NCBI GenBank assembly: GCA_021733835.1 | Contig: JAIPKD010000006.1 | Span: forward strand, 211-64,210 | Source of the DNA: Verrucomicrobiota bacterium | Lineage (GTDB): Bacteria; Verrucomicrobiota; Verrucomicrobiia; Limisphaerales; JAIPKD01 | DNA: 64,000 nucleotides | Reading direction: 5' to 3' | In this document: piece by piece, positions 35,360-63,926 of the stretch | Layout of the letters: each line of letters opens with the position of its first letter | Position numbering within the stretch: the stretch's first letter is position 1 | The notes under the pieces: generated by a model | Told to the model about the DNA's origin: nothing | The model's database searches: none | What the model saw: only the letters and a program-made list of their open reading frames with translations | Program-made: the position numbers and the translations under genes

Positions 35360-35896
35360 ATGAAATATTTCGACGAATTAAAATGGGCAATGGAATTCTT
35401 GGCCCAGGATACCAGGACGGTGTTTCTCGGACAGGCGGTGGCGTGCGCGGGTACGGCTATGTCCAATACGCTTAGGGACGTCGACCCGGACAGGAGGATC
35501 GAGCTGCCTGTCAATGAAGAGATGCAAATGGGAATGACCAACGGCATGGCGTTGAGCGGTCTTATCCCTGTAAGCGTATTTCCGCGTTGGAATTTTCTGC
35601 TGCTTGCGATGAACCAGCTTGTAAACCATCTAGACAAAATACCCGTCATCTCGAGGGGAAGGTGTGCTGCCAGGGCGATTATTCGCACCGGAATTGGATC
35701 GGAGCGTCCGCTCAACCCACAGTGTCAGCACGTTGGGGACTTCACGGAGGTCGTCGACGCGATGTGCCGGAACATCGAGGTGATTCGATTGGAGGAACCT
35801 GAGGATGTGTTTCCCGGTTATAAAAAAGCGCTAGAACGTGACGACGGTAAAAGCACCATATTGGTGGAATATGGAGATTACTATAATGAAAAGTGA
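35360..35896 (+). CDS. Short TPP-dependent E1 beta-like (pyrimidine-binding domain) subunit
   Basis: VFLGQAV..GTAMSNTL..RIELPVNEEMQMGMTNGMALSGLIPVSVFPRWNFLLLAMNQLVNH resembles the E1-beta/transketolase Pyr domain. The start sits 3 nt after the upstream stop. Length is 178 aa. Confidence 0.65.
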   Translation: MKYFDELKWAMEFLAQDTRTVFLGQAVACAGTAMSNTLRDVDPDRRIELPVNEEMQMGMTNGMALSGLIPVSVFPRWNFLLLAMNQLVNHLDKIPVISRGRCAARAIIRTGIGSERPLNPQCQHVGDFTEVVDAMCRNIEVIRLEEPEDVFPGYKKALERDDGKSTILVEYGDYYNEK

Positions 35897-37103
35897 TACA
35901 GTGGCATTGAACGAAACGGCGGTGGCGGAAGATAGCCTCGGCCCGTGGCCGTTGATGCGTAACAATATCTCGCGAGCCGACCTGGACGCAGTAATCGAGT
36001 TTCTTGGCAAAGATGATCCGATCCTGACGCAATCGGAAAACGTGCGAGCATTTGAGAAAGAATGGTCCGAATGGTTGGGAGTCGATTACAGTGTATTCGT
36101 TAACTCGGGCGCGTCGGCGAACTTATTAACCATGTCCGCGCTTAAGTATATATACGGGCCCGGAGAGGTTATCGTTCCAAGTTTGACTTGGGTTTCGGAT
36201 ATCGCGTCCGTCATACAAAGCGGACTCAAGCCGGTGTTTGTGGACATCGATCCTTTCACGCTCGGCATGGATACCGAGCAAGTATTGGATAAGTTGAATT
36301 CGCGCACGCGCGCGGTGTTCTTGACGCATACCCTTGGATATAACGCGTTGAATGATAAGTTGTTAGACGAGCTTAAGGCCGGCGGAGTTCCGCTGATCGA
36401 GGATGTTTGCGAGTCACATGGGGCGACGTATAACAACAAAAAACTCGGCGCGTTCGGCTGGATATCGAATTTTTCTTTCTACTATGCCCACCACTTAAGC
36501 ACTATCGAAGGTGGTATGGTATGCACATCCGACCCGGAGGTATATTATATTGTTCGTATGCTCCGGTCTCACGGCATGGTGCGTGAATCGGGTTCTCTTG
36601 AGACCAAGACCCGGTATCGCGTTGAGAATCCCGATCTTAATCCCGATTTCATATTCGCATACCCCGCATATAATATGCGAAATACCGAAATCAATGCAGT
36701 CATAGGCCGGAACCAACTTAAGCGCTTGAACGAGAATAACAGGAAACGTACACGTAATCTCCATATTTTTCTCGAACACTTGGATGCAGAACGGTTTCAG
36801 ACGTGTTTCAACACCGCCGGGAGTAGTAATTACGCGTTTACATTGATACTGAATGCGCCGGATTTAAAACTGCGGAATAGGATTGAAAAAGAATTGCGCG
36901 AGAACAAAGTCGAGTTCAGACGCGGTACCGCCGGCGGAGGAAACCAGCTGCGACAGCCGTATCTGCGAAGGATATTCGGGGATATTTATAAAAACTATCC
37001 CGCAGTCGACCATGTACATTTCTTCGGATGGTATATAGGTAACTATCCGGACCTGGAAGAAGAGAGAATAATTCACCTTTGTAGACTATTAAACGGAGTC
37101 TAA
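35886..37103 (+). CDS. DegT/DnrJ/EryC1-family PLP/PMP enzyme of the ColD/E1 sugar 3-dehydratase type (His replaces the Schiff-base Lys)
   Basis: VNSGASANLL. The active-site block NFSFYYAHHLSTIEGGMV (36468-36521) resembles ColD FSSFYSHHIATMEGG and E1 SFYPAHHITMGEGG rather than the aminotransferase SFxxxK motif. Confidence 0.7.
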   Translation: MKSDTVALNETAVAEDSLGPWPLMRNNISRADLDAVIEFLGKDDPILTQSENVRAFEKEWSEWLGVDYSVFVNSGASANLLTMSALKYIYGPGEVIVPSLTWVSDIASVIQSGLKPVFVDIDPFTLGMDTEQVLDKLNSRTRAVFLTHTLGYNALNDKLLDELKAGGVPLIEDVCESHGATYNNKKLGAFGWISNFSFYYAHHLSTIEGGMVCTSDPEVYYIVRMLRSHGMVRESGSLETKTRYRVENPDLNPDFIFAYPAYNMRNTEINAVIGRNQLKRLNENNRKRTRNLHIFLEHLDAERFQTCFNTAGSSNYAFTLILNAPDLKLRNRIEKELRENKVEFRRGTAGGGNQLRQPYLRRIFGDIYKNYPAVDHVHFFGWYIGNYPDLEEERIIHLCRLLNGV

Positions 37104-37106
37104 GCG

Positions 37107-38660
37107 ATGTTATATGAAAGACGACCGGATGTATTATTCGTGCACGCGGATTCGTCCGTCTTATCGTATCAGGGGCTGAGCGCCAGGTTTGCGGCGATCG
37201 AGCCGCCGACGTGGTGTCTGCTCCTGGCGCAGAGTTGCAGGAGTGTTGGTTTTGGGGCGATGATCCTGGATTGCGCCGCCGAGGGCTTGGATATCGATGA
37301 AGCGGTAGAGCGTATTTGTGAGATTCGTCCGCGACTAGTCTGTTTTGTGGTATATGGACAGAATCCGAACTCGGGAACGACTAATATGTCGGGTGCAACC
37401 CTCCTATGTAGGCGGCTAAAGGAGGTATCGAACGGAGCCAAGACATGCTTTGTCGGCTCGCATACCAATGCGCTGCCGAATGAGGTGCTAGGTTTGGATT
37501 ATGTGGATTTCGTGCTGTTGAACGAAGGCGTTTATGCGTTGCGAAATTTACTGAAAACCGATTTGGAGAATTACCTAGATAAGGTGCGCGGCATCGGTTT
37601 TAAAAAATACGGGAGAAACATCTTGAATGAGCCCGAGTATGTTGTGCCACAGGAACGAATGGACATTGATTTGCCGGGCTACGCGTGGGACTTGTTGCCG
37701 TATAAGAGTAAACCACTTGATCTATATCGCTCACACTTCTGGCATGCAGACTTCGATCATACAAAACGTACGCCGTTCGCCGCAATATATACATCATTAG
37801 GCTGCAGATTCAGGTGCGAATTTTGCATGATAAATATATTGAACCGTATGGATAATCGTCTGCATATAACCGCCGCCGATTCTCCCCAAATGCGGTTTTG
37901 GTCGCCGGACTTCATAATACGCGAGTTCGAAAAACTTGCAGGCATGGGGGTGGAAACCATTCGTATCTCCGACGAAATGTTCTTCTTGGATAAACGCTAT
38001 TACAAGCCGTTGGTTGAAATGCTGGAAGAACGCGATCTCGGATTGCGCCTTTGGGCGTATGCTCGGGTTGATACCGTGCGCAGTGAGTACTTGAAACACT
38101 TCAAGAACGCAGGAATCAATTGGCTGGCCATCGGCGTCGAGTCCGCGAATAAGCAAGTCAGACACGAAGTATCAAAGGGTTCATTCAAGGATACGAATAT
38201 TTACGATGTAATCAATATGATCCGCGATGCGGATATAAATGTGATATCGAATTTTATCTTCGGCCTTCCCGAAGACACGATTCAGACGATGCGTGAAACG
38301 CTGGACCTCGCACTTGAGCTTAACACGGAAATGGCAAACATGTATCCGTGTATCGCCCTGCCGGGCAGTAGACTGTATCATACCGCAAAGAAGAGGCATT
38401 GGGCACTCCCTGAATCTTATGAAGGCTACGGATTCCTGTCATACGAATGTCAACCGTTACCGACAAAGTATGTATCCGCAAAAGAAGTGCTGAGTATTCG
38501 TGATAAGGCATGGAATGAATATTTTAACAATCCGGCCTACCTCGAATTGGTCGAACGAAAGTTCGGCGTCAAGCAAAGACGAAATGTCGAAGAAATGAAG
38601 AAAATACGGCTCAGACGTAAAATTCTTGGAGATGTACCGCTTAAGTGCGAAGCCGAATAA
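37107..38660 (+). CDS. B12-binding-domain radical SAM enzyme (class B, probable methyltransferase)
   Basis: N-terminal Rossmann-like B12-binding region (LVCFVVYGQNPNSG) and radical SAM motif SLGCRFRCEFC (CX3CX2C). Confidence 0.8.
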   Translation: MLYERRPDVLFVHADSSVLSYQGLSARFAAIEPPTWCLLLAQSCRSVGFGAMILDCAAEGLDIDEAVERICEIRPRLVCFVVYGQNPNSGTTNMSGATLLCRRLKEVSNGAKTCFVGSHTNALPNEVLGLDYVDFVLLNEGVYALRNLLKTDLENYLDKVRGIGFKKYGRNILNEPEYVVPQERMDIDLPGYAWDLLPYKSKPLDLYRSHFWHADFDHTKRTPFAAIYTSLGCRFRCEFCMINILNRMDNRLHITAADSPQMRFWSPDFIIREFEKLAGMGVETIRISDEMFFLDKRYYKPLVEMLEERDLGLRLWAYARVDTVRSEYLKHFKNAGINWLAIGVESANKQVRHEVSKGSFKDTNIYDVINMIRDADINVISNFIFGLPEDTIQTMRETLDLALELNTEMANMYPCIALPGSRLYHTAKKRHWALPESYEGYGFLSYECQPLPTKYVSAKEVLSIRDKAWNEYFNNPAYLELVERKFGVKQRRNVEEMKKIRLRRKILGDVPLKCEAE

Positions 38661-38713
38661 ACAAACCGGTCAGCCGTATTATAATATGATTAAATTAGTG
38701 TAATAATATTACC

Positions 38714-41700
38714 ATGCAAAACAGCGTATATTCAAACCCGACCGACGCGAATGATGTAATTTACGAGTCCATCAATGATGCGTTTGAGTTCGGGGATTAT
38801 TCCTACGTAGCGCAGTCCGGGGAGAAATCGGATTGGCGATACTGGGTTGCTCTCGGACTTCTGGGGAAGACAGATGATGCAATCAATGGTTTGAATGAAT
38901 TCAGCAATCCCGAAGCGTGTTTCTACAAGGCCGTAAGCCTATGGATGGATGGGCGTGATAATGATGCCTCCTCACTGCTTGCAAAGATAGATACCGTTAA
39001 TGCTCGAAGGCTGCTCAAAATGATCTCACAGCCGAAAATCAATGTGCTTGCTCAAACGTTTTGGGACACGAGCTGCTTCAGCGATCCGAAATTCAATGTT
39101 AAAAAGATCGGCTTAAACGCGTATCCGTTTAAAGAAAGAAGCAGCCGTATTTGTAAGAGCGCTTTAAAGCAGATCGATAATCGCGAGCAATATGATTTTT
39201 TCTTTGCACACATGATAGAGTGGGAACACTTACCGCATGATCTGCATGAATTGCCTTGCCCTGTCTTCGGCGTGACGTCGGACTTTGATCTGCATATTCA
39301 AACAATCCATGATTGGCTTTTTGTATTCGACCACCTTATTACAGTTGGCTCAGAAGAAGCATGGAAAGTTAGACATATATCGCGGCGGCCGTCGTCGGTA
39401 TTCGTCAAAATGTTCCCTTTAAAAGATAAGATACCGAATGCATCCTTCTCAGATAAAATAACTAATCTTTATGTATCAGGAACATTGTTCAATCCGTATC
39501 ATCACGATAAAGCCCGTTTAAACAACCTGATATTCGAAAGTGAATTAAGTGATAATCTATTCGTTGATGGATTCGTAGGTCAGCAATTGTATTATGAACA
39601 ATTAAAGAAATCCAAGGTCTGTTACACGTACGTACGTCATGGTTCGTCCATGCCGTCGCGTGGAATCGATGCGCTTGCAATGGGCTGCGCAGTGGTCGTT
39701 CAGGAAAACAGTCCACTCTCCATCTTCGCCTCTGAAAAAGAGGGTCTGTTTACATATAACCATAAGACTGACGATTTGGTAAATGTATTGGCTCATGTGA
39801 TCGACAATTGGAAGAGTATCAAGGGCAATTTAAAAAAAGGTGCCGATATTGTTAGAAATGAATTTAATCATAAACGTTGCGTATCACAATTTTTAAGGTA
39901 CTTGACCTTTCTAGCGGCGACTCATAATTATAGTAGATCAAACAGGAAGAATGCAAGTGGTATATCGCAGAAACGAGCGCATGTGCGCAGAGGTAGAAAA
40001 CAGCCTTTGGGAGTTAATAAAGACTTGGCATTAGACAAATATTCAGAATTCAAAAGGCACGAGCCAAAAGATAGAACGCTTAAGGCATATATTGATACGG
40101 CACGGGAGCTGGAATATCTAGTTGCAGGCGATTATATCGAAGAAATAGCAAGACGCGGCGGAAACACTGTGCGGATTGAACAAGCACAGGAGATAGTGCA
40201 AATAAACGAATTAGTGTCGAATATTTATAATGAAGGCACCATAATATACACAAAATCCTTGGCATTACGTTTCAATCAAATAAGACACTACATGTATTTG
40301 GGAAAACCAGATAATACGCCGTGGATTATCGAAGAGGCGAAGGATATTGTATCAAAACCACTTGATCACTGGACGCTGGATCACCTTGACGATATATTTG
40401 CATGGGATTACTTCAGCGATAGTTTTAATTATAGAAAATATTTCGATATTATTACGTACGGACTGATAAAAAATGATATTGATTACACACAGCTAAAAAG
40501 ACTGATCCTGGCATCAATAAACTATTATTTAGGACAGTACACCGGCGGATTGGAATACTTGAGAAAAGCGGTTGAATTAGACTCAGAATTCGCATTTTAT
40601 AAATATACATATGTACAAGCTCTATTGATATCCGGTACGGAAGATAATAACAAGGAGGCGATAATAATGCTAAGAGAACTTGCGAACACATCTATGATGT
40701 TCGCCAAAGCGATAGAAATGTTGATTTCACCCGAATTACAGCGCCATATAACACCTGGGGAATACTCAAAATATGAGTTTAAGCTCCGTAATTACATGAA
40801 TCAAATGTATAACGCAAATGATAATTTAAAGGAATATTTGACGACTACATTAGTTGAACCTAGAAGTGATACAGATACTGATACATTGCAAACACAAATT
40901 AAAGAACACGAAAAAGTAGGCGTTGAAGAAAATAGACTAACAATGAATAGCCGAATCCCAATAAGTAAAAGGGAAAGATACGCAGATAAGACTATATTAT
41001 TGATTAATATGGAATGCGCTAATTGGGAAAACGCGAGATCATGGTCATACTGTGGTGGGTATGCCTTTGAGGAAGGATTGGAGTGGTGCGGCGCAAACGT
41101 ATATAAATTACCGGCAACAGCCGGCGGAAGCTCAAATCATCCGGCTTCCTGGCTAAGTCGCATGAAAGAAATCGGCTTATCGAGGAGATACGACCAGATA
41201 TGGATATGGATGACGCATGTGGATTACACGCAAGAGTTCCTTGAAAAAATAAAGGAATTATCGCCGGTTCGTGTGGGGATTATAATGGAATCAATGGAGC
41301 ACACAAACGATGAATATAATAAATATGTCAAGTGTCGAGGTAGGCGGGAGAAAATATTAAGTCAGCTCGAATATATGACGCATGCGCTGGCTTTCGACGA
41401 CTACGATGTCAAAACAATAGAAAAGGAAGCGGGAATACATGCAATGTGGTGTCCACCCGTGGTGCCGTGGCGGAGTGTATGCAACGAGATCATAATGCCT
41501 GATCCAGCGCCCGCAGCCTTTTATGGCACTGTATATTCCAGTGAGAGAATGAAGTTTTTAAGTCATGATGGTCTAAAAGGATTAATAACTAAGCCGGAGT
41601 TGCTTGAAGAAAGAACGACACTGCCGAAGGCGTTTGATGATCACCAGCGGAAGTACATCGAGATATTGCTTGGAAACGATATGGTGGATAACGAGGTATT

Positions 41701-44260
41701 TTATAATTATTACTTCGGATTGGAATTAATACGACGAAGGTTATTCGATTTATGGATGAGGTCAATCGCGCGCTCATACGCTGTAGTAAATCTACCATCG
41801 ATTTTTAAATGCTATGCGGGACGAGTAGTTGAGACAATGGCAGCCGGGCGTCCGGCTATATCGTGGGCGCCGCCCAGGCAAAGGACAAGGTCATTATTCG
41901 AACCGGATAACGAAATATTGCTGTTCGATCGAAATTCTCCAGAGGAACTGGCGGAAAAGATCAGAATGCTCCAAAGAGATAAAGACTTAGCTTTTAATAT
42001 AGCATGTAATGCACGAGAGAAAGTATTGAATTATCATACGGAGCGAGTGCGAATGCAGCAGGTGTTGGATTGGATAGACGAATTCGAAGAACCGGATTAC
42101 GGCGAAGGTGATTACGGAGAATGCAAGGATTTCTGCGAAGACGATGAATTAATGGATAGCAATCGGGGTATCCTCGACGCTGGGATACCGGGAAACGGAG
42201 ATAACGGCGGTGGAATACCGAATAATATTCGTAATGCGCAAGAGAAGATCAAACTGGAGAGTAAGCCTATAGAATTACCTGAGGCGGGGAAGAAGGGACG
42301 TCTTCGCGACGCATACGGACTCTTGTCTGAGGGGCGATTACAAATGTCGTGGCAGGCGACCATTGAGGCAATGCGCGAGCGCCCGTTTCATCCGGAGGCG
42401 ATCACGGTATTATCCAGGATCGCTCATGCAGCTGGGGATTTGGAGAAGGCCAAGACGCTGGTTGACGCGGCTATACGAATGGCGCCCGGATTCAAATTGG
42501 CACAGGATTTAAAGAAGACGATTAAGAAGGCGCGATCAAAAGGGAGTGAGAATACTAAAACGCCATGGGCGATGATTCCGGATGAGCCTGTGTTTAAGAA
42601 TATCAAGAACACGGCGAAGTCTTCGTACGTGGGCGTGTTAACCGCATGTATCATAGTGCGAAACGAGGAGAAGTTTATTGAGCGTTGCATCAGTTCCGTG
42701 AAGCCCATCGCCGCGCAGATAGTGGTGGTGGACACCGGTTCTATGGATAGGACGGTTGAAATAGCGCGCCGATTAGGCGCAGAGGTACATAGTTATGAAT
42801 GGAACGATGACTTCAGCGCCGCCAGAAACTTCAGTCTTGAAAAGGCGCGTGGTGATTGGGTGTTAATAATCGACGCAGATGAAGAGCTGCCCGCCTCAGA
42901 GCACGCGAACATCATGAATAATATGCGGGAATTATCGGTGCTAGGATTTCGTCTGCCGATTGTCAACGCAGGACGTAATCAGCATGGAGCGGCTTACGTG
43001 CCGCGGTTGTTCCGGAACGCGCCGGGCCTCTTTTTTGTCGGCCGGATTCACGAACAGGTTTTCAAGAGTGTCACTGTTCGCGCAAGGGAGTGGGGATTGA
43101 CCGTAGGAATAAGTTCCGCCCAGCTGGTGCACTATGGATATGACGCGGACTTGATGAAGGATAGGAAGAAACAGGAAAGGAACATGAACCTTATCAAGCG
43201 CGCTGTTGAAGAAGACCCGAATGATCCGAACATAGCGATGAACATGGGCTTAGAGCTGGGGCGTTCGGGGCGGCTTGAAGAGTGTATCGGATGGTATTAC
43301 AAGGCGATGCAGTTGATGACATTGCAACCGGACACGCGGGCGCCTGAGCTTCGGGAAGTGATGTTGACTCAGTTTTGCGGATATCTCGCCAATCTCAGAC
43401 GGTACAGCGAGATTCCCGAGGTTCTCGGCTCGGAATTGGCGAGGACGCAGGAGTTTACTGCATCGCTGCATTACATTTTGGGTCTGGCATATTTCAACCT
43501 CGGCAAATTCAGCGCCGCGTTGGAAGAGGTGGAGACCTGCATGGCCAAGAAAAATAGGCAAACCATGAGTCCGCAAATAAACGAGGTGCGTGGGATCGAA
43601 CCGTTGTTGATCCGCGCTAATTGCCTTGCCTTGCTTAAGCGTTATGAAGAGGCTGGGAAGGCGTTTCGTGTTGCGTTGGAACATGACGAGCGGTCGCGGA
43701 GTGCACGGTTCGATTACGCCAGGTTCCTCGCGTCACGCCGTCAGACCGGTGAGGCATTGAGGCTATTAATCGAGCTGGTTTCTGAAGGCGCCGGTGAATT
43801 GCCGGTTTGGGATATAGGCGCGCGCATAGCGTTAACGGATAGGCGGTATACGGCGTATGCGTTGGATTGGACGGCGGAGGCGGTGAATGTTTTTCCTCAT
43901 GAACGGATCGTGATCCGTCAACGCGCCGAGGCGCTACTGCTCAATGACATGCCGGAACAGGCATTTACATGGTACCGTAAGTTGAAATACCCGCTCGATT
44001 CGACATCCGAGGCAGGGTTGTTGGTTTGTGGTTTCGTCGTAGACGATGAAGAGGTATGCAGCGATGTGAAGACCGATAGAGTTTTGAACGCTGAATTCGC
44101 GGCTTGGTACAAGCGCCTTGTCCAATTCGGGGCGCGTACGACAATCAAAAAATTGAATTCACGCATGCACGCCGTGGCCGATATATTGCCGTTGACCGGG
44201 CCCTTACTTAGAAACGCCGCCGCGCAGGCGCAGGCTTCGACGGTGGTTACCGATTCCTGA
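38714..44260 (+). CDS. 1848-aa multi-glycosyltransferase: two CgeB/GT1-like modules + GT2 (GT-A) module, interleaved with TPR/helical repeats
   Basis: aa ~150-400 form a GT-B-like module (SRGIDALAMGCAVVV). aa ~760-1130 are CgeB-like (GRVVETMAAGRPAIS..LFEPDNEILLFDRNSPEELAEKIRML..AREKVLNYHT). aa ~1305-1520 are GT2 (CIIVRNEE..VVVDTGSMDRT..NDDFSAARN..LIIDADEEL). TPR-like helices lie between and after these modules. Confidence 0.75.
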   Translation: MQNSVYSNPTDANDVIYESINDAFEFGDYSYVAQSGEKSDWRYWVALGLLGKTDDAINGLNEFSNPEACFYKAVSLWMDGRDNDASSLLAKIDTVNARRLLKMISQPKINVLAQTFWDTSCFSDPKFNVKKIGLNAYPFKERSSRICKSALKQIDNREQYDFFFAHMIEWEHLPHDLHELPCPVFGVTSDFDLHIQTIHDWLFVFDHLITVGSEEAWKVRHISRRPSSVFVKMFPLKDKIPNASFSDKITNLYVSGTLFNPYHHDKARLNNLIFESELSDNLFVDGFVGQQLYYEQLKKSKVCYTYVRHGSSMPSRGIDALAMGCAVVVQENSPLSIFASEKEGLFTYNHKTDDLVNVLAHVIDNWKSIKGNLKKGADIVRNEFNHKRCVSQFLRYLTFLAATHNYSRSNRKNASGISQKRAHVRRGRKQPLGVNKDLALDKYSEFKRHEPKDRTLKAYIDTARELEYLVAGDYIEEIARRGGNTVRIEQAQEIVQINELVSNIYNEGTIIYTKSLALRFNQIRHYMYLGKPDNTPWIIEEAKDIVSKPLDHWTLDHLDDIFAWDYFSDSFNYRKYFDIITYGLIKNDIDYTQLKRLILASINYYLGQYTGGLEYLRKAVELDSEFAFYKYTYVQALLISGTEDNNKEAIIMLRELANTSMMFAKAIEMLISPELQRHITPGEYSKYEFKLRNYMNQMYNANDNLKEYLTTTLVEPRSDTDTDTLQTQIKEHEKVGVEENRLTMNSRIPISKRERYADKTILLINMECANWENARSWSYCGGYAFEEGLEWCGANVYKLPATAGGSSNHPASWLSRMKEIGLSRRYDQIWIWMTHVDYTQEFLEKIKELSPVRVGIIMESMEHTNDEYNKYVKCRGRREKILSQLEYMTHALAFDDYDVKTIEKEAGIHAMWCPPVVPWRSVCNEIIMPDPAPAAFYGTVYSSERMKFLSHDGLKGLITKPELLEERTTLPKAFDDHQRKYIEILLGNDMVDNEVFYNYYFGLELIRRRLFDLWMRSIARSYAVVNLPSIFKCYAGRVVETMAAGRPAISWAPPRQRTRSLFEPDNEILLFDRNSPEELAEKIRMLQRDKDLAFNIACNAREKVLNYHTERVRMQQVLDWIDEFEEPDYGEGDYGECKDFCEDDELMDSNRGILDAGIPGNGDNGGGIPNNIRNAQEKIKLESKPIELPEAGKKGRLRDAYGLLSEGRLQMSWQATIEAMRERPFHPEAITVLSRIAHAAGDLEKAKTLVDAAIRMAPGFKLAQDLKKTIKKARSKGSENTKTPWAMIPDEPVFKNIKNTAKSSYVGVLTACIIVRNEEKFIERCISSVKPIAAQIVVVDTGSMDRTVEIARRLGAEVHSYEWNDDFSAARNFSLEKARGDWVLIIDADEELPASEHANIMNNMRELSVLGFRLPIVNAGRNQHGAAYVPRLFRNAPGLFFVGRIHEQVFKSVTVRAREWGLTVGISSAQLVHYGYDADLMKDRKKQERNMNLIKRAVEEDPNDPNIAMNMGLELGRSGRLEECIGWYYKAMQLMTLQPDTRAPELREVMLTQFCGYLANLRRYSEIPEVLGSELARTQEFTASLHYILGLAYFNLGKFSAALEEVETCMAKKNRQTMSPQINEVRGIEPLLIRANCLALLKRYEEAGKAFRVALEHDERSRSARFDYARFLASRRQTGEALRLLIELVSEGAGELPVWDIGARIALTDRRYTAYALDWTAEAVNVFPHERIVIRQRAEALLLNDMPEQAFTWYRKLKYPLDSTSEAGLLVCGFVVDDEEVCSDVKTDRVLNAEFAAWYKRLVQFGARTTIKKLNSRMHAVADILPLTGPLLRNAAAQAQASTVVTDS

Positions 44261-56632: not shown

Positions 56633-58525
56633 ATGCATCCGGAAAATGTAAAAGAGCTGGAGCTTATACTTAAGCAATTACAAGTCGGCGCAATGGGCCT
56701 GCAAGGGCCGCGCGCCAGAAAAGTGCGACAGCAATCAGGTGATGTGATGACAATCAGCATCCCTACGCACGTGAGGGACTGGCCGTTGGACCAGATGCCC
56801 TTGTCGGTAAGGTTGAGCGGCGTGCTTCAGAAAATGGGGTTCAAGAAGCTGGGCGACCTGCATGGATTGTCGTATATCCAGGTTCTGAGCATGCGCAACT
56901 GCGGACGCCGTTCGATTTTCGAGTTGGTCGAGCTTGTACGCCGTCTTCAAGCCGGAGAATTTGATCCTGTTAAGGTAAAGGGTTCGGGCATCGATTATCT
57001 CACTGAATTTTTGGATGATATAATCGATGAGCTCGGCGAGAGGGAGCGCCAGATGCTCATGTTGAGAATGGGCGCTGACGGCGGTCCGCCGATGACGCTT
57101 GAAGAAGTGGGTTCGAAGTATGGATTGACACGCGAGCGGGTGAGACAGGTTGTCGACCTCCTTGTATTGAAGATATTGCGAAGCGGCGGGCCTCCGATTC
57201 AGGACTTATTGGAAGACCTGGCCGAGCAATGTCTATCGGCGATTTGCCCATTGACGCCTGAATTATTCGTTAAATGGCTGGGCATAACGCCTGCCAAGCA
57301 TTGCAGGTATGCGGTGCCGTTTTATATTCGTCTCTTTAGCGCCCTTGAGCCCAGCCTGCCCGGGTGGTCGGAAGGGCAAAAGCCCAGTCCGAATCCGGAA
57401 ATGTGGATCAAGGAAATCTCGCGGCCGTTGACCGAGATTCTCAAGGGCAGTGTTTCGCCGCTCTCTTTCGAGAACGCATACAAGAAATTGAAGTCCAACG
57501 CGAATTTATCGAAATTGACGCCGGGCGAATTTCTTGCGGCGCTGAAGCAGAGCAGAACATTGGCCGTCGAGTTTCCGGAACCCGAAAAACCGGTGATTCG
57601 GCTTTCGAGTTTACGGATACACGACTGGGTTCAGCGCGTATTGTTGAACTCCGAAGACCCGATGACGCCTCAAGAGATAATCAAGAGCGCGAAAGAATTG
57701 TTCTCCGAGAACTTCCCGGATATATCGATCGGTGGCCTCAGGAATTCGCTGAAGCCCGAACACGGGATATTCCTGCTTGACCGTCGTGCATTCGGAACGC
57801 GGAAGCATATCAAATTGCCTGAGCGCCTTTGGAGGAGGGCGAGAAACGACGTGGCTAAACTGCTTCAGAAGGAGGAACGTCCTGTTTCCACACGGGAAAT
57901 CATCAGGGACAACACGTTCGGTTGGGCATGTTTGACGAATGTTTATGAATTGGCCCAAGTATTAAGGGATGATACAAGATTTACGGACTTGGGGCGCTTT
58001 CTGTTTGCCCTTGAGTCTTGGGGTATGGGTGAACGCGAGCATATTAAAGACCTTATTCCCAAGATTCTCAAGGAAAAGGGTCAGCCCATGACCGCCAATC
58101 AGATTCTGGATGAATTAAAAGCGCGACGATCAGTCGGACGCGCCACGATTTCGGCCGTCATACGCAATCATCCGGACATAAAACGTTTGGGTTACGGCTA
58201 CTATGGGTTGAAGGAGTGGAAGGAGATGCCCAAAGAATTCATCGTTAATCAACCTTCGCTGATCAGCAAGAAGGTGATTTCACTTAAACCGCCGGTGTCC
58301 TTCGCCGAGGTTTGCAAGGAACTTGATATACCGGTCAAAGGCAAGTTGGCGGATGATCTTTGGAACACCCTCCAGGTGTCAAGCCGAATAAAAACCAAGG
58401 ATGAAGAGAAATCGGCGTCTGCGTTGATAGTCCAACGTAATGCTCGCGTAGCCGAAAAAAAGAAAAGCGCCGGCGCAAAGGCAAAGAAGAAGAAAAAGAA
58501 GGTAAGAAAGAAAAAGACCGCTTAG
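56633..58525 (+). CDS. Multi-HTH DNA-binding protein: RpoA alpha-CTD-like HhH + sigma-70 region 4 + three HARE-HTH-like modules + Lys-rich tail
   Basis: LSVRLSGVLQKMGFKKLGDL..MRNCGRRSIFELVELV is alpha-CTD-like. ERERQMLMLRMG..MTLEEVGSKYGLTRERVRQVVDLLVLKIL is region 4. Three repeats carry an xPMTxxEII.. opening; the second and third end in a G..L.EW/SW-type motif (e.g. GQPMTANQILDELK..LGYGYYGLKEW). The C-terminus is KKKSAGAKAKKKKKKVRKKK. Confidence 0.65.
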   Translation: MHPENVKELELILKQLQVGAMGLQGPRARKVRQQSGDVMTISIPTHVRDWPLDQMPLSVRLSGVLQKMGFKKLGDLHGLSYIQVLSMRNCGRRSIFELVELVRRLQAGEFDPVKVKGSGIDYLTEFLDDIIDELGERERQMLMLRMGADGGPPMTLEEVGSKYGLTRERVRQVVDLLVLKILRSGGPPIQDLLEDLAEQCLSAICPLTPELFVKWLGITPAKHCRYAVPFYIRLFSALEPSLPGWSEGQKPSPNPEMWIKEISRPLTEILKGSVSPLSFENAYKKLKSNANLSKLTPGEFLAALKQSRTLAVEFPEPEKPVIRLSSLRIHDWVQRVLLNSEDPMTPQEIIKSAKELFSENFPDISIGGLRNSLKPEHGIFLLDRRAFGTRKHIKLPERLWRRARNDVAKLLQKEERPVSTREIIRDNTFGWACLTNVYELAQVLRDDTRFTDLGRFLFALESWGMGEREHIKDLIPKILKEKGQPMTANQILDELKARRSVGRATISAVIRNHPDIKRLGYGYYGLKEWKEMPKEFIVNQPSLISKKVISLKPPVSFAEVCKELDIPVKGKLADDLWNTLQVSSRIKTKDEEKSASALIVQRNARVAEKKKSAGAKAKKKKKKVRKKKTA

Positions 58526-58552: not shown

Positions 58553-58589
58553 GCGGTACCGGTTTTGAATCGCCGGTACCGCTTTTTTT
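58553..58589 (+). terminator. Rho-independent terminator
   Basis: gcggtaccgg-ttttgaatcg-ccggtaccgc is a perfect 10-bp stem followed by TTTTTTT, located 28 nt after the stop at 58525. Confidence 0.85.
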
Positions 58590-58754: not shown

Positions 58755-59804
58755 ATGAAAAAATCGCGTAGAGATGAAAACAAGCAGTCGCGTAGGGATT
58801 TCTTGCGAAAAGGCATGGAAGGAATGCTTGCATTCGGCGCCGGCGGCGCAGCCGGAGTATTTGCCGATGACACGATACGCCCGAAACCCGGAAACCATAG
58901 CGCGATTCCAAACGCCTCTCCGACAAGTGGCTATGACATGTCGAAGTTGGCGGAGGTCGATCCGGCGCTTATTCGATATCGCGAGAAGGGGAGATTCGGC
59001 TGCGATATGGAGGAATCGGTTGCGTTATGGATTGATAACGGCGACCTCGTGTATGTATGCGGCGATGAATGCGTAAATGTTTTTGACCGTGTCGGTAGAA
59101 AGAGAACAACGTTGAAGGTCGGCGGCAGACCGCGGGCGGTGTGTTCCGTCGACGGTGATAGGATATTGGTGGCGGTCGGAGACAGGATTGTGATCCTCGA
59201 TTCGGAAGGAGGAGTCTTAAGCGATACAGGATCGCTGGGTGAGCGTTCCGTTGTGACGTCAATTGCGGTTGGCGGGGAAGGAACGATTTTCGCAGCCGAT
59301 GCCGGAGAAAAGTGTATTTGGAAGATAAGCGCCGATGGGAAGGTGCTTTCGAAAAACAGAGGAGACACCGAGGGCGGTGGTGTCGGGTTTGTGATACCGA
59401 GTCCCTTTTTCGATATTGCATTTGACGCCGACGGCCTGTTATGGGCGACGAATACCGGTGAACACCGCATCGAGGCATATAACGAAGAAGGCGAGATTTC
59501 GCGATCCTGGGGGAAGCCGACGATGGCGATCGAGGGCTTTTGCGGCTGTTGTAATCCGGTTAACATATCGATTTTGAATGATGGTCGGTTTGTGACCGCG
59601 GAGAAGGGACTGCCGAGGGTGAAGGTTTATTCGGCGGATGGTGAATTCGAATGTGTAGTGGCGCCGCCGAACTCGTTCCCGGGATTAATGAGGAAAAGAC
59701 CTGCCGGGCGGATGCGTGCGCTGGACGTCGCTGTAAATTCCGATGGCGAGGTTTATGTATTGGATACCGGTTCGAGTCAGGTTAGAATCTTTGTTACAGA
59801 TTAA
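58755..59804 (+). CDS. Tat-signal NHL-repeat-like beta-propeller protein
   Basis: Twin-arginine motif SRRDFLRKG plus a hydrophobic region. Repeated blade motifs (ILVAVGDRIVILD, IFAADAGEKCIWKI, LLWATNTGEHRIEAY, RFVTAEKGLPRVKVY, VYVLDTGSSQVRIF). Unusual GFCGCCNP motif. Confidence 0.7.
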   Translation: MKKSRRDENKQSRRDFLRKGMEGMLAFGAGGAAGVFADDTIRPKPGNHSAIPNASPTSGYDMSKLAEVDPALIRYREKGRFGCDMEESVALWIDNGDLVYVCGDECVNVFDRVGRKRTTLKVGGRPRAVCSVDGDRILVAVGDRIVILDSEGGVLSDTGSLGERSVVTSIAVGGEGTIFAADAGEKCIWKISADGKVLSKNRGDTEGGGVGFVIPSPFFDIAFDADGLLWATNTGEHRIEAYNEEGEISRSWGKPTMAIEGFCGCCNPVNISILNDGRFVTAEKGLPRVKVYSADGEFECVVAPPNSFPGLMRKRPAGRMRALDVAVNSDGEVYVLDTGSSQVRIFVTD

Positions 59805-59858
59805 GCCGTGCCGCCGGATGTGTGCGGCACGGGTTTGAAAAAAGTAAAATCCCTAAGA

Positions 59859-60110
59859 ATGAAAGAGCGTAATAACGATATACATGGTTCGGCCGAAAAG
59901 GCGCAAAGCCGCAGAGAATTTGTAAAGGTCGGTATGAGATGGGGGTTCCTTGGGGTGCTGGGTGTCTTGGGCGCCGTCCTCGGCGCCAGGAGCGTGAACG
60001 GCGAGGATTGTTATTACACGATTCCATGTAACGGCTGCCGTGCGTTCGAGTTTTGCCGGCTGCCGAAGGCGTCGAATTTTAAAAGTGGTAATCCTTTGAC
60101 GAACCGATGA
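59859..60110 (+). CDS. Small (83 aa) Tat-signal Cys-motif protein
   Basis: SRREFVKVG twin-arginine motif plus a hydrophobic stretch, then CYYTIPCNGCRAFEFC (CX5CX2CX5C). The stop overlaps the next start (ATGA). An alternative GTG start exists at 59808. Confidence 0.55.
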   Translation: MKERNNDIHGSAEKAQSRREFVKVGMRWGFLGVLGVLGAVLGARSVNGEDCYYTIPCNGCRAFEFCRLPKASNFKSGNPLTNR

Positions 60111-60694
60111 GCAAGGCGGAGAAAGAGAAAGGCATCGAGCGCGGACACTCAAGGCGCGGATTCCTGAGCGGCGGTTTTCGAGGGGCGATGTTGTTCTTTT
60201 TTGGGATGGTAACCGGATTCTTTACCGGGAAGGTGCGCGCTGAACGTACGGTTTGGCAGATTGACCCATTTAAATGCGTGTTTTGCACAAACTGCGCGAC
60301 GGAATGTGTGTTGGAACCATCCGCTGTGAGGTGCGTACAGTATTACCCGATCTGCGGCTACTGCAAGCTGTGTACCGGATATTTCGATCCGCAACCGATA
60401 AATCTGGACACAGGCGCCGAGAACCAGATTTGTCCGACCGGCGCGATAATCAGGACAAAGCTCGAGGACCCGTATTACGAGTACACGATCGATGAGGAGC
60501 TGTGCATCGGTTGCGCCAAGTGCGTCGAGGGTTGTGAGTTGTTTGGTAACGGCTCGTTTTTCTTACAGGTCAGGCATGATAAGTGCGTAAATTGCAATGA
60601 ATGCGCGATAGCGGTTTCGTGCCCCGGTCAGGCTTTCGTGCGTGTTCCGGCCGGTGATCCTTATCTTTTGAAAACAAGGGAGACTGCGGGATGA
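60107..60694 (+). CDS. Tat-signal poly-[4Fe-4S] ferredoxin (NapG/MauM-like)
   Basis: SRRGFLSGG twin-arginine motif. Cluster motifs CVFCTNCATEC, CGYCKLC..CP, CIGCAKCVEGC and CVNCNECAIAVSCP. Confidence 0.8.
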   Translation: MSKAEKEKGIERGHSRRGFLSGGFRGAMLFFFGMVTGFFTGKVRAERTVWQIDPFKCVFCTNCATECVLEPSAVRCVQYYPICGYCKLCTGYFDPQPINLDTGAENQICPTGAIIRTKLEDPYYEYTIDEELCIGCAKCVEGCELFGNGSFFLQVRHDKCVNCNECAIAVSCPGQAFVRVPAGDPYLLKTRETAG

Positions 60695-62100
60695 GGGAAT
60701 CGACCGGTTCAAATCTCATCGGTGACTCTGGCGGGTGCGGGTGTTCCAGTGTCAAACGCCGGGGCATGCGTCCGATGCTATGGTTGCTCCTGTTATTGAT
60801 TAACATAGCGCCGTTGCAGAATGCCTATGGTGTGATGCGTTTTCCGCCGCCGGAGTTCGAGTCCGGCTATCAGATGCCGACGACCACGACACCCGAGGCG
60901 CGGTCGGACTTCCTGGATTACCTGGATATAGCGGTATTGGCGGCGGCGTTGAGTATGGCGGCGCACCTGGTCTTGTGGCGGCGTTCGCGGAAGTGGGTAT
61001 TTGTGCTCATGCTGTTTTCGCTGGCGTATTTCGGATTTTACCGCAAGGGCTGTATTTGTTCAATTGGTTCGATTCAAAATGTGGCATTGGCTGTTTTTGA
61101 CGGCGGATATGCGCTGCCGTTGAGTGCGCTGATGTTTTTCCTTTTGCCGCTTGTTTTCGCGTTATTTTTCGGACGCGTCTTTTGCGGGGCGGTATGCCCT
61201 TTGGGCGCGATTCAGGACGCGGTGTTATTCAGGCCGGTAAAGGTCAAGCCGTGGTTGGAGCATGTGCTGGCTACGGTTCCGTTTTTGTATCTCGGCGCCG
61301 CCGTGCTTTTTGCGGCCACGGGCAGTGCCTTCATTATTTGCGAGTACGATCCTTTTGTCGCTTTCTTCAGGCGGAGCGGGTCTTTTGGTATGTTGACGCT
61401 CGGAGTTGGATTCCTGGTTCTCGGCGTATTCGTGGGGCGTCCGTATTGCCGGTTCTTATGCCCGTACGGCGCGGTTCTACGGGTGCTTTCGTATTTCTCG
61501 AGATGGAAGGTCGAGCTCTCACCCAACGAATGCCTGCAATGTCAAATTTGCGAGGAGGCATGTCCGTACGGCGCGATATCGGAACCTATCGTTTTTGAAG
61601 AGCCGGAGACGCCATTGCAGCGCAGGCGCTCGGTTATACAACATGTAATAGTGACGCTGGTTATCGGCGCTTCGCTTGCGGTCATCGGCGGCGGCTTGGC
61701 TACTGAATTCTCAAAAGTGCATCCTACGGTGAGCCTGGCCGAGCGTGTGGCCGGCGAGGAGCAGGGGAGGTTTGAAGACACGACTGATGCGAGCGCGGCG
61801 TTTAGGGATACCGGTCGGACGACCGATGAGTTGTATGCGGAGGCCATGACAATACGCTCTGAATTCGTCACGGGCGGCCGGTGGCTCGGCGCATTTTTCG
61901 GGATTGTGATCGGGTTGCGAATGATGATCCCGGCATTCCGGCAGCGGCGATCCGTGTATGATCCTTCGCCGTCGGCGTGCCTTTCGTGCGGCCGATGTTA
62001 CAATTATTGTCCCAAAGAACTTTTGCGGGTAAAACGCAACCGCAGTCTTTGTCCTAAAGTAGATTCCACGAGTCCCAAAAACTCGGCAACCGTAAAATAG
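60691..62100 (+). CDS. Integral-membrane polyferredoxin (NapH/MauN/YccM-like 4Fe-4S binding protein)
   Basis: Multiple TM helices. Paired CX3CP motifs (FCGAVCPLGAIQD, CRFLCPYGAVL). Ferredoxin motif CLQCQICEEACPYGAI. Late CLSCGRCYNYCP. ATGA overlap with the upstream gene. Confidence 0.8.
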   Translation: MRESTGSNLIGDSGGCGCSSVKRRGMRPMLWLLLLLINIAPLQNAYGVMRFPPPEFESGYQMPTTTTPEARSDFLDYLDIAVLAAALSMAAHLVLWRRSRKWVFVLMLFSLAYFGFYRKGCICSIGSIQNVALAVFDGGYALPLSALMFFLLPLVFALFFGRVFCGAVCPLGAIQDAVLFRPVKVKPWLEHVLATVPFLYLGAAVLFAATGSAFIICEYDPFVAFFRRSGSFGMLTLGVGFLVLGVFVGRPYCRFLCPYGAVLRVLSYFSRWKVELSPNECLQCQICEEACPYGAISEPIVFEEPETPLQRRRSVIQHVIVTLVIGASLAVIGGGLATEFSKVHPTVSLAERVAGEEQGRFEDTTDASAAFRDTGRTTDELYAEAMTIRSEFVTGGRWLGAFFGIVIGLRMMIPAFRQRRSVYDPSPSACLSCGRCYNYCPKELLRVKRNRSLCPKVDSTSPKNSATVK

Positions 62101-62111
62101 AAAGTTATCAT

Positions 62112-63926
62112 ATGGCCCGATTCCCAAGAATAGAATCGTTTTTCGGATCAAGGTTGGCCCGGAACATTGCTTTTGTAGCGGGCGCGTTTTGTTGTGCGCT
62201 TGCGCTTGTGATGCTTTACGAAGTATTCAGCGCCGGGACCAAGGAATTCGTTGATGCAAAAAAGATAACGGCGCTCAAGCAGAAGTTGAACGAAAACCCG
62301 TTGGACGAAGAACTGAAGGCGGAGATACGTGTCGTTGACCTTGAACGGCGTCGGGTCTTTCTCAGGCGGAATGAGTTGCTGAATTCAGGCGCCTGGCTGC
62401 TTCTTCTCGGCGCCGCGCTTTTTTATACGGGTGCGAAGTTATACAATTATAAGACGAAGATTCGGCCGCCGCGTGGACGCGGTTTGAAGGCCGAAGCCCA
62501 GCTGATGGCGGCTGTTACTGATCAACGCGCATTGGCCGTGCTCGGCGCTGTTGCAGTGGCCGGCGGAGTGATTGCGCTCCTGATTTCAGATACCAATATC
62601 GAACAGCGCACAATAGCCAAGGCCGGCGGTGCCGTTGACGAAGGCGCCGGAACCAGCGCGTCTGATACAAACGGGGTACAAGACGTTGCCGATATGGCGC
62701 CTTATCCGTCACATGACGAGATGATGCAGAATTGGCCGAGATTCCGCGGCCCGGGCGGGAACGGCGTTTCGCAGTACCTCAACGTACCGACCAACTGGAA
62801 TGCCGCTACCGGCGAGGGTATAGTTTGGAAAACGGAAGTACCGATCACCGGACCGAGTTCACCTATCGTCTGGGGCGACAGCATTTTCTTGGCGTCCGCG
62901 ACTGAGACGGTCGAGGAGATTTATTGTTTCGATGCTTCGGACGGCGGACTCGTCTGGAGGAGGCAGCTCAAGAATGTGCCGAATGAACCCGAGGAGCCGC
63001 CGCAGGTTATGGAAGACTCCGGCGGATACGCGCCGTCTACGCCCGCAACGGATGGACGCCGCGTTTACGCCATATTCGCCAATGGGAATCTCGGCGCATT
63101 CGACTACGAAGGTAAACAGGTCTGGGTCAAAAATCTCGGCCTCCCGGATAACGGATATGGACATGCATCCTCTTTGCTCACATACAAGGACAAGCTGATC
63201 GTGCAATACGATCAGGGAACGCCTGATGATGAGAAATCCAGGATATACGCCTTTGATACGGCAACCGGTGAAATGGTGTGGCAGACCGATCCGCGGCCCG
63301 TGCCGGCGTCCTGGGCGACGCCTATCGTAATACGTCCGGAGACCGCGCCTGAGCAGATAATTACTTGCGCTGATCCGTGGGTTATTTCCTATGCACCCGA
63401 TGATGGTGAGGAGATTTGGCGTGCAAGGGCATTGTACGGCGAGGTCACGCCCTCGCCTATCTTTGCATCCGGCCTGGTATTCACCGCTATGGAAGGCGAA
63501 TTCCTCTCGGCAATCGAACCAGACGGAACGAATGATGTGACGGACACCAAGATTGTATGGGAGGGCGAGGATGGATTGCCGAACATAGCCAGTCCTGTTT
63601 CCGATGGAAAACGCGTGTACCTTATAAACACTTATGGGCCGATGACGTGTTACGATATCGACGATGGTGAGCTGTTGTGGGAGAAGTACATCGAGTTCGG
63701 CCCGGATGAAATTGCTGAATTTAACTCATCCCCGACCGTCGCGGGTGAAATGGTGTACGTGACCTCCACCGGCGGCACCACGATCATAGTCCCGGGCGGC
63801 GACGAGTATAAAGAGGTGAATCGTTGCAGCCTGGGCGAACGCGTGCTTTCGTCGCCGGCGTTCATGGACGGGCGCATTTATATCCGCGGCGAAACGAACC
63901 TGTTCTGTCTTGGATCAGGGGAGTAA
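62112..63926 (+). CDS. Membrane-anchored PQQ-like (BamB-type) beta-propeller protein
   Basis: Three N-terminal hydrophobic helices, then WPRFRGPGGNGVS and repeated propeller blades (IVWGDSIFLAS, RVYAIFANGNLGAFD, LIVQYDQG, RIYAFDTATGEMVW, MVYVTSTGG, RIYIRGETNLFCL). Confidence 0.75.
   Translation: MARFPRIESFFGSRLARNIAFVAGAFCCALALVMLYEVFSAGTKEFVDAKKITALKQKLNENPLDEELKAEIRVVDLERRRVFLRRNELLNSGAWLLLLGAALFYTGAKLYNYKTKIRPPRGRGLKAEAQLMAAVTDQRALAVLGAVAVAGGVIALLISDTNIEQRTIAKAGGAVDEGAGTSASDTNGVQDVADMAPYPSHDEMMQNWPRFRGPGGNGVSQYLNVPTNWNAATGEGIVWKTEVPITGPSSPIVWGDSIFLASATETVEEIYCFDASDGGLVWRRQLKNVPNEPEEPPQVMEDSGGYAPSTPATDGRRVYAIFANGNLGAFDYEGKQVWVKNLGLPDNGYGHASSLLTYKDKLIVQYDQGTPDDEKSRIYAFDTATGEMVWQTDPRPVPASWATPIVIRPETAPEQIITCADPWVISYAPDDGEEIWRARALYGEVTPSPIFASGLVFTAMEGEFLSAIEPDGTNDVTDTKIVWEGEDGLPNIASPVSDGKRVYLINTYGPMTCYDIDDGELLWEKYIEFGPDEIAEFNSSPTVAGEMVYVTSTGGTTIIVPGGDEYKEVNRCSLGERVLSSPAFMDGRIYIRGETNLFCLGSGE

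Follow-up and report, generated by a model that had tools for sequence, protein, structure and literature searches.

A conserved bacterial gene cluster joining a NapH-like Fe-S module to two beta-propellers, with a candidate Cys-Cys or selenocysteine-Cys redox centre

Gene order and distribution of the cluster

We analysed a 64,000-nucleotide (nt) stretch, nearly the whole of the 64,368-bp contig JAIPKD010000006.1, from the metagenome-assembled genome of a Verrucomicrobiota bacterium (GenBank assembly GCA_021733835.1), called the window below, and in particular five genes near its 3' end that encode an NHL-repeat beta-propeller, a small four-cysteine protein, a ferredoxin, a NapH-like membrane Fe-S protein and a PQQ_2-type propeller (Table 1). 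A scan of the window for open reading frames (ORFs) placed all five on the + strand at 58755-63926, behind a terminator-like site. This hairpin with its T-run (58553-58589) was the best-ranked site in a terminator scan; it closes the upstream gene and marks the 5' boundary of the operon. The small ORF and the ferredoxin gene share a 4-nt ATGA overlap at 60107, as do the ferredoxin and NapH-like genes at 60691, and the remaining intergenic gaps are 3 or 54 nt, depending on which start the small ORF uses, and 11 nt. A first-pass annotation, made from the letters of the sequence, had described this arrangement along with paired CX3CP motifs in the membrane protein and three twin-arginine motifs, SRRDFLRKG in the NHL protein, SRREFVKVG in the small protein and SRRGFLSGG in the ferredoxin, and all of these features are present. 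Profile searches likewise agreed with its labels for the products, with Pfam returning NHL, Fer4_7/Fer4, two copies of Fer4_5 with Fer4, and PQQ_2, while the small protein had no match in Pfam or NCBIfam. An Rfam scan of the whole window revealed no riboswitch or other RNA clue upstream of the operon.

Table 1. Positions of the operon features in the window, and of the TGA-associated hairpins in related loci (aa, amino acids; Tat, twin-arginine translocation)
Feature	Position	Strand	Details
Intrinsic-terminator-like hairpin	58553-58582, with T-run to 58589	+	11-bp stem, 8 G-C pairs, TTTTTTT
NHL beta-propeller, six-bladed, Tat signal	58755-59804	+	349 aa; proposed catalytic subunit; Pfam NHL 47.8 bits
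F-C-G-C-C-N-P motif	59538-59558	+	NHL-protein residues 262-268
C265 and C266	59547-59549 and 59550-59552	+	Vicinal Cys pair, proposed redox centre
Small four-Cys Tat protein	59859 (ATG, 83 aa) or 59808 (GTG, 100 aa) to 60110	+	
Cys knot of the small protein	60009-60056	+	C-x5-C-x2-C-x5-C-x-LP-x-A
Tat-exported ferredoxin	60107-60694	+	195 aa; Pfam Fer4_7/Fer4
NapH-like polytopic membrane Fe-S protein	60691-62100	+	469 aa; Pfam Fer4_5 x2 + Fer4
Membrane-anchored PQQ_2-type (BamB-like) propeller	62112-63926	+	604 aa; PQQ_2 109 bits
In-frame TGA and GGUC-loop hairpin	L087 2957-2995; L092 2652-2690; L093 566-604		Planctomycetes-clade NHL homologues

For the comparison of gene neighbourhoods, 80 genome loci were fetched by two conserved peptide patterns of the NHL protein alone, and their ORFs were searched with the five window proteins; synteny was counted in the 59 of these 80 loci that extend at least 5.2 kb downstream of the NHL gene. 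In 54 of the 59, the ferredoxin, NapH-like and PQQ_2 genes keep the window's order and share one strand, and the five exceptions are mostly due to duplicated or split genes. The recurring order is NHL propeller, four-Cys Tat mini-protein, four-cluster Tat ferredoxin, NapH-like protein and PQQ_2 propeller. By group, the loci come from Planctomycetota (29), Bacteroidota (21), Verrucomicrobiota (16), Lentisphaerae (3) and Latescibacteria (2), with single loci from Kiritimatiellae, KSB1, Aminicenantes and Terriglobia, and the Bacteroidota carriers include an isolate, Marinifilum fragile JCM 15579. The gene set is thus conserved over at least eight bacterial phyla, and the possibility raised at the outset, that the propellers are ordinary BamB or NHL paralogues scattered independently of the Fe-S genes, does not describe what we observed. 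The families themselves are large. Relatives of the NHL protein number in the thousands, its family comprises 827 clusters at 50% identity (E<=1e-30), a scan for the NHL motif matched at least 587 species-level genomes, and over 7,700 proteins fall into the NapH-like family at the same E-value threshold.

The two closest long contigs (L004 and L006) have the identical five-gene order, followed beyond the PQQ_2 gene by a GtaA-type glycosidase in L004 and by an ABC transporter on the opposite strand in L006. No terminal reductase adjoins the operon in any of the 80 related neighbourhoods, in line with the expectation that none would lie immediately downstream; relatives carry there either unrelated genes or the NAD(P)H module described below. 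Genes for NapA, NosZ or MauB/MauA catalytic subunits are absent from the window and from the same 80 neighbourhoods. The core of the first-pass reading, an orphan NapGH-like module tied to two propellers and a small Tat-targeted Cys protein and lacking a characterised counterpart, therefore holds, and a keyword search of the literature found no description of the gene cluster.

Some loci show further genes around this core. Two Latescibacteria loci, L047 (4685-6810) and L025 (5294-7450), have two tandem NHL paralogues ahead of the small-protein and ferredoxin genes. Upstream of the NHL gene in eight Planctomycetota loci (L013, L024, L026, L032, L033, L039, L044 and L083), at a distance of about 2-8 kb, lie an ABC ATPase and a double-FtsX permease of about 1100 aa, and a GT1-family glycosyltransferase also precedes in L032, L033, L039, L044 and L083. 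One contig with NHL and ferredoxin genes, L075 (CAYHFK010000160), is labelled 'uncultured Bifidobacterium sp.' and looks mis-binned, since all other carriers are Gram-negative (Planctomycetes-Verrucomicrobia-Chlamydiae group, Bacteroidota and the like).

The cysteine pair of the NHL propeller and its probable selenocysteine variant

The NHL protein scores 47.8 bits against a Pfam cut-off of 20 (PF01436), placing it among the NHL-repeat proteins. Its AlphaFold2 (AF2) model (predicted local distance difference test score, pLDDT, 86) is a six-bladed propeller in which 24 strands form six groups of four. The top fold matches to this model in the PDB are the NHL domains of TRIM2, Thin and Brat, at E values of about 1e-16; only generic NHL domains were returned, and the fold search gave no functional clue. 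Conservation is more telling. In 94 sequences that are 35-42% identical to the window protein, residues G264, C265, C266, N267 and P268 are invariant, and the other invariant positions are mostly structural residues of the NHL repeat. The GFCGCCNP motif, singled out earlier as an oddity of this protein, thus proved to be its key feature, although its first Cys is replaced by Ser in many family members and the invariant part is G-C-C-N-P. Assignment of secondary structure in the AF2 model with DSSP places this stretch in a 17-residue loop that runs from the outer strand of one blade to the inner strand of blade 5. The loop is predicted to lie on the side that surrounds the central channel, the usual site of action of propeller enzymes, and the invariant vicinal Cys pair is probably a catalytic redox site.

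How the NHL protein reaches the periplasm varies by lineage. Verrucomicrobiota, Lentisphaerae and KSB1 have a Tat signal at its N-terminus, Planctomycetota and Bacteroidota a plain Sec-type membrane anchor, and one side branch within the family a lipoprotein signal, so that the Tat export proposed for this protein applies to the window but is not a general trait. This variation argues against a cofactor loaded in the cytoplasm and for thiol chemistry.

Because a catalytic Cys pair might contain selenocysteine in some homologues, we scanned metagenome contigs for G-F-C-G-TGA-C-N-P. The scan returned five matches. One of them, L087, encodes an NHL homologue with TGA exactly at the position of C265 and homology on both sides of it; the other four (L088-L091) lack NHL homology and were rejected as chance matches. 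A search with the N-terminal fragment of the L087 protein then gave two more proteins called as ending in ...DGFCG, P0122 (81% identity) and P0123 (66%), one of them from an NCBI Planctomycetes metagenome-assembled genome. The DNA of both has the same in-frame TGA, followed by codons for C-N-P-S-H-F-A-V-R-S-D-G. In all three loci (L087, L092 and L093), known from short contigs of 954-3820 bp, gene callers had cut the protein off at ...DGFCG. These homologues, though not the window gene, therefore have an in-frame UGA aligned to Cys with homology continuing downstream, as expected of selenoproteins. The same gene ends at a normal TGA stop, indicating that the genetic code is not reassigned. No in-frame stop opposite a Cys was found elsewhere in the five proteins, including the other four, in all fetched loci.

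An all-Watson-Crick stem of 8 bp (CGCCGUCC/GGACGGCG) with a GGUC loop starts 17 nt past the TGA. Published criteria for bacterial selenocysteine insertion sequences (bSECIS) are a loop of 3-9 nt with G in its two leading positions, a stem of 4-16 bp, a location 16-37 nt past the UGA and a minimum free energy of <= -7.5 kcal/mol (PMC13188914), and the hairpin of the TGA clade, with a spacing of 25 nt, agrees with all of them. An Rfam search of L087 returned no SECIS match. In the DNA of this clade some 60 nt around the TGA hardly vary, and the flanks diverge. The three independent assemblies with TGA at the first Cys of the pair mark C265 as the putative redox-catalytic residue, and from their sequences the TGA-bearing NHL homologues are probably an unannotated selenoprotein family. 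A keyword search of the literature found no description of an NHL selenoprotein, and the selenoprotein inventory in a 2026 review has no NHL or propeller entry (PMC13188914).

The Fe-S proteins, the PQQ_2 propeller and their surroundings

The ferredoxin combines four 4Fe-4S cluster motifs with a twin-arginine signal whose RR-x-F element is kept in 72 homologues, an architecture of the NapG/MauM type. Its 17 conserved Cys residues are enough for four [4Fe-4S] clusters with one to spare (C76). The NapG/MauM model (TIGR00397-type) is nevertheless absent among its 20 NCBIfam matches at E<=0.1, of which the top ones, the generic FdxA family and PRK09898, are both far under their cut-offs, and a comparison with PDB sequences gave a weak match to 9mqx_E.

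The NapH-like protein is much more strongly conserved than the NHL protein, with homologues 50-59% identical to it versus 36-45%. It contains two CX3CP motifs (C165-x3-C169P and C253-x3-C257P) and two full cluster motifs (C281xxCxxCxxxC291P and C430xxCxxCxxxC440P), all at least 93% conserved, and two extra transmembrane helices lie between the two CxxCxxCxxxCP motifs. Also conserved are G-C121-x-C123, C217-x-x-D-P-F and an N-terminal R-F-P-P-P (FPPPxF) motif. The AF2 model (pLDDT 78) has eight long helices; taken with the positive-inside rule, these helices would have the CX3CP and cluster motifs face the cytoplasm and C121, C123 and C217 face the periplasm. The best NCBIfam match, TIGR02163 (NapH/MauN), reaches 59.9 bits against a cut-off of 213, the NapH model PRK09477 reaches 57.8 against 234, and the score against NosR is also far under its cut-off. 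No relative was found in the PDB by sequence or by fold (best E 0.35), and public databases name the protein only as '4Fe-4S binding protein', 'polyferredoxin' or 'NosR/NirI family'. The likeness to NapG and NapH that had been proposed thus stands for architecture and fails for family membership: the motifs are present and the curated models did not match, from which we conclude that the pair works like NapGH but lies outside those families.

The small ORF is present in at least 61 related loci, usually between the NHL and ferredoxin genes and, in eight Verrucomicrobiota, just upstream of the NHL gene. Its product consists of RR-x-F, a hydrophobic segment, basic residues and then C-x5-C-x2-C-x5-C-x-L-P-x-A; 57 of 62 sequences have exactly four Cys, the 5/2/5 spacing is kept in 58 of 62, and the 62-sequence consensus has no conserved Trp such as the small subunit of methylamine dehydrogenase would require. 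The spacing recalls the [4Fe-4S] loop of endonuclease III, C-x6-C-x2-C-x5-C. Together with Tat targeting it suggests a cofactor-bearing mini-subunit, and the protein is probably Tat-targeted, membrane-tethered and able to bind a metal or an Fe-S cluster.

At its N-terminus the PQQ_2 protein carries about three transmembrane helices. It scores 61.5 bits against BamB (TIGR03300, cut-off 285), a lipoprotein of about 390 aa, and 38.8 bits against PQQ-dependent alcohol dehydrogenase (TIGR03075, cut-off 480), placing it outside both families. Its only PDB sequence matches are weak ones to BamB, and its conserved residues are mainly structural (W, G and SP) plus one Cys (C513). It is probably a scaffold or partner of the NHL propeller. 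In many loci a PQQ_2 gene directly adjoins the NHL gene, and one metagenomic protein, P0369 (816 aa), is a fusion of a PQQ_2 propeller (about residues 130-380) and a Cys-Cys NHL propeller (527-810), which hints that the two propellers act together. In many loci the upstream side adds between one and four PQQ_2 propellers and the downstream side one more. Within the window there is also a lone, unlinked PQQ_2 paralogue at 28062-29282 (- strand; 406 aa), 22.7% identical to the operon's protein, which resembles the extra PQQ_2 genes found upstream of the NHL gene in other phyla.

Clustering of all neighbouring ORFs revealed two more recurrent genes right after the PQQ_2 gene. The first encodes a NuoE-NuoF fusion of about 786 aa (2Fe-2S_thioredx, Complex1_51K, NADH_4Fe-4S and two Fer4 domains). 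The second encodes a protein of about 520 aa in which a HoxU/NuoG-like 2Fe-2S N-terminus is followed by a GltD-like Fer4_20/Pyr_redox_2 core and, at the C-terminus, by a Fer4_Nqo3-like domain. This pair is present in 32 of the 53 loci with room for it (13/13 in Bacteroidota, 12/18 in Planctomycetota and 4/13 in Verrucomicrobiota). A cytoplasmic module that oxidises NAD(P)H thus comes linked with a membrane protein whose 4Fe-4S motifs are predicted to be cytoplasmic, most simply read as an electron path that crosses the membrane between NAD(P)H and the periplasm.

The rest of the window is ordinary chromosome and includes rho, gatB, murC, a purB-like gene, glycoside hydrolases and CotH-type proteins. 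Its sole Rfam match at gathering score is a tRNA gene at 7326-7396 (-). Directly upstream of the operon, beyond the terminator, lies a gene for a 630-aa protein (56633-58525, +) that combines a segment like the C-terminal domain of the RNA polymerase alpha subunit with sigma-70 region 4, has winged-helix/HARE-HTH-like matches and ends in a long Lys-rich tail; its top NCBIfam match, far under the cut-off, is the anti-phage MZA sigma factor MzaA, and the gene is not syntenic with the operon in relatives. A single 725-aa ORF at 20735-22912 (+) is an unusual triple fusion of a low-molecular-weight phosphotyrosine phosphatase, RpiB/LacAB and a full serine hydroxymethyltransferase. Two large CotH-kinase-domain proteins are encoded at 318-5090 (-; 1590 aa) and 15788-18565 (+; 925 aa), both with CHB_HEX_C_1 (chitobiase/beta-hexosaminidase C-terminal) and the former also with lamin-tail and Fn3-associated domains. 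The stretch 35838-44260 (+) encodes, one after another, a DegT-type aminotransferase, a radical SAM enzyme of the B12-binding kind and a 1848-aa multi-glycosyltransferase/TPR protein in what looks like a glycan-modification cluster, and the radical SAM enzyme may hint at an anaerobic lifestyle.

A proposed periplasmic thiol or selenol oxidoreductase

On balance we favour the view that the five genes encode one periplasm-facing membrane complex, a thiol or selenol oxidoreductase wired by Fe-S clusters. The NapH-like subunit would take up electrons at its cytoplasmic [4Fe-4S] clusters, likely from the adjacent NuoE/F and GltD-like NAD(P)H module in most lineages and presumably from the quinone pool or an unlinked donor in this Verrucomicrobia lineage. 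The electrons would cross the membrane through Cys-ligated centres of the same subunit and pass to the Tat-exported four-cluster ferredoxin and then, where it is present, to the small four-Cys Tat protein. The end point would be the NHL propeller, in which C265-C266 may alternate between a disulfide and a dithiol state (in one clade, a selenenylsulfide and a selenolthiol), and the reduced pair would in turn reduce a periplasmic substrate. The membrane-anchored PQQ_2 propeller may hold or position the NHL propeller. As to the substrate, a disulfide or polysulfide-type compound or a thiophilic metal or metalloid would be most plausible, with peroxide a further candidate. More tentatively, the NHL propeller may be the founding member both of a reductase class new to the periplasm and of a further selenoprotein family, with a Cys-Cys or Sec-Cys (selenocysteine-cysteine) pair on a propeller face and an all-Fe-S wire that exports low-potential electrons from NAD(P)H, possibly aided by flavin-based bifurcation in the NuoEF/GltD module.

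Several observations weigh against this proposal or narrow it. One-electron Fe-S carriers normally need a specialised site to reduce a disulfide, and none of the five proteins contains a substrate-specific domain. A tblastn search did not find the NuoEF/GltD module within the 64-kb window, and it is also missing from the closest syntenic relatives, so the window holds a minimal core. In Planctomycetota and Bacteroidota the NHL protein is held by a Sec-type membrane anchor rather than exported by Tat. A side branch of NHL proteins keeps the Cys-Cys motif without adjoining Fe-S genes (PQQ_2-NHL-Malectin in L002; L044), and the Cys pair thus need not always be served by this chain. The putative selenocysteine clade has no small protein between its NHL and ferredoxin genes, so this subunit is not essential to the electron path. 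The three TGA-bearing sequences form one clade, at 66-81% identity. Finally, a set of about 75 control loci of the Cys type shows how often such hairpins arise by chance: about 12% of these loci have one of 7 bp or more (G-U pairs allowed) and two have one of 8 bp or more, which makes the hairpin alone weak evidence for selenocysteine and leaves the TGA conserved in three assemblies as the strong part.

The direction of electron flow is one point on which a different account can be built. If the flow were reversed, the propellers would oxidise sulfide, a thiol or a persulfide and pass electrons through the ferredoxin and the NapH-like protein to quinone, or through NuoEF/GltD to NAD(P)+. The same anatomy suits either direction, and HoxEFU-type modules are reversible. 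NapH-like modules, moreover, adjoin oxidases such as ExaA as well as reductases (PMC8238504). However, Sec/Cys redox centres typify reductases and enzymes of the thiol peroxidase type, reduction of NAD(P)+ from thiol-level donors is energetically unfavourable, and neither propeller conserves an oxidase-type cofactor site, and we therefore regard reverse flow as unlikely. The lack of any classical catalytic cofactor site could also be taken to mean that the propellers do no chemistry, the ferredoxin and NapH-like protein being a general NapGH-like quinol dehydrogenase for an unlinked periplasmic reductase, and the propellers and small protein scaffolds or assembly factors only; the almost entirely structural nature of the conserved PQQ_2 residues and the weak resemblance to BamB fit such a role. 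We give this account a low probability, since a Sec/Cys pair is not expected of a passive scaffold, linkage to the propellers is near-obligate across phyla and a reductase gene is never adjacent.

The chemistry of the Cys pair itself could be read differently, as a site for Cu, Hg or another thiophilic metal in a periplasmic metal reductase or metallochaperone, comparable to CcoG, a cupric reductase of the Fer4_5 family, or to the C-terminal Cys-Cys of MerA. The NapH-like protein does belong to the Fer4_5 superfamily, vicinal Cys pairs bind Hg(II) in MerA and MerT, and the C-x-C-C pattern resembles metallothionein motifs. Against these parallels, the first Cys of C-G-C-C is the one replaced by Ser in many members, the neighbourhoods contain no recurrent metal transporter, chaperone or regulator, and NCBIfam returned no match to CcoG or Mer families, leaving only a slim chance for a metal site. 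The analogy with methylamine dehydrogenase drawn in the first-pass annotation did not survive. It would make the set a quinoprotein, with a propeller, a small Cys-rich subunit bearing a peptide-derived quinone and MauM/MauN-like helpers. The parallel, to which the rank of TIGR02163 as best NCBIfam match adds, is superficial: the small protein offers four conserved Cys and no Trp, no MauG- or radical-SAM-type maturase recurs nearby, the NapH/MauN score falls far below its cut-off with no MauM/NapG match at all, and the putative selenocysteine clade lacks the small protein. We rejected this analogy as very improbable.

The proposed Fe-S-wired oxidoreductase shares parts with several known systems. 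Like NapGH and the paralogous NosGH and MauMN, it pairs a Tat multi-cluster ferredoxin with a polytopic membrane protein that has two CX3CP motifs and two 4Fe-4S motifs assigned to the cytoplasmic side, and the genes of the pair adjoin each other and are coupled in translation. Unlike NapH, the membrane protein here has two extra transmembrane helices, an insertion of about 130 residues and the additional conserved C121, C123 and C217, and its partners are NHL and PQQ_2 propellers instead of NapA/B, NosZ or MauA/B. As a PQQ_2-type protein with the sequence signature of an eight-bladed propeller, the second propeller resembles BamB and the PQQ dehydrogenases, but it has a three-helix membrane anchor where BamB has a lipoprotein signal and is always linked to Fe-S genes. 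The adjacent Cys/Sec pair recalls two C-terminal motifs, Gly-Cys-Sec-Gly in mammalian thioredoxin reductase and Cys-Cys in MerA, which are mobile two-electron redox or ligand-exchange centres; here, in contrast, the order is Sec-Cys, the pair lies in an internal loop of a periplasmic NHL propeller, and the proposed feed is through Fe-S clusters rather than flavin or disulfide. The proposed outcome, electrons derived from cytoplasmic NAD(P)H on a periplasmic dithiol, is that of DsbD/CcdA, except that DsbD is a thiol-disulfide cascade from thioredoxin and the present system would use Fe-S proteins throughout and has no thioredoxin-fold domain. In the related loci that carry it, the NuoE-NuoF fusion, together with the HoxU/NuoG-like protein and its inserted GltD-like flavoprotein domain, resembles a HoxEFU/NuoEFG-type diaphorase and is presumably comparable to the Sporomusa-type Nfn (StnABC), but it is tied to a membrane NapH-like protein and not to a hydrogenase or a soluble ferredoxin.

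NapH-like proteins have been described as modular transmembrane electron-transfer units for periplasmic oxidoreductases, with reactions that are mostly unknown (Meheust et al., eLife 2021, PMC8238504). Some of these systems partner beta-propeller enzymes such as NirS and ExaA, and the set includes NosR and PceC (PMC8238504). The present system has in common with them a PF12801 membrane Fe-S protein as the conduit to a periplasmic oxidoreductase. It differs in that those systems are defined by a flavin mononucleotide (FMN)-binding domain or ApbE flavinylation, whereas this one has no FMN-binding domain and has instead a Tat ferredoxin with a four-Cys mini-protein, NHL and PQQ_2 partners, linkage to NuoEF/GltD and a candidate Cys-Cys or Sec-Cys centre.

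Most NapH-like modules lack a known reaction, and the one described here is among the most widely conserved of them and now has a concrete, testable catalytic residue pair. With Marinifilum fragile JCM 15579 as a cultured carrier, genetics and biochemistry are feasible. If the proposal is correct, it would establish a new redox-active use of the beta-propeller fold and a selenoprotein family absent from the 2026 inventory. It would also provide a new route for reducing power into the periplasm of fermentative or anaerobic Planctomycetota, Verrucomicrobiota and Bacteroidota, a route that could matter for the chemistry of sulfur, metals or oxidative stress in sediments. On the more tentative reading, as a new reductase class, it would represent an unrecognised electron sink, detoxification pathway or envelope-repair pathway for anaerobic polysaccharide degraders in at least eight phyla.

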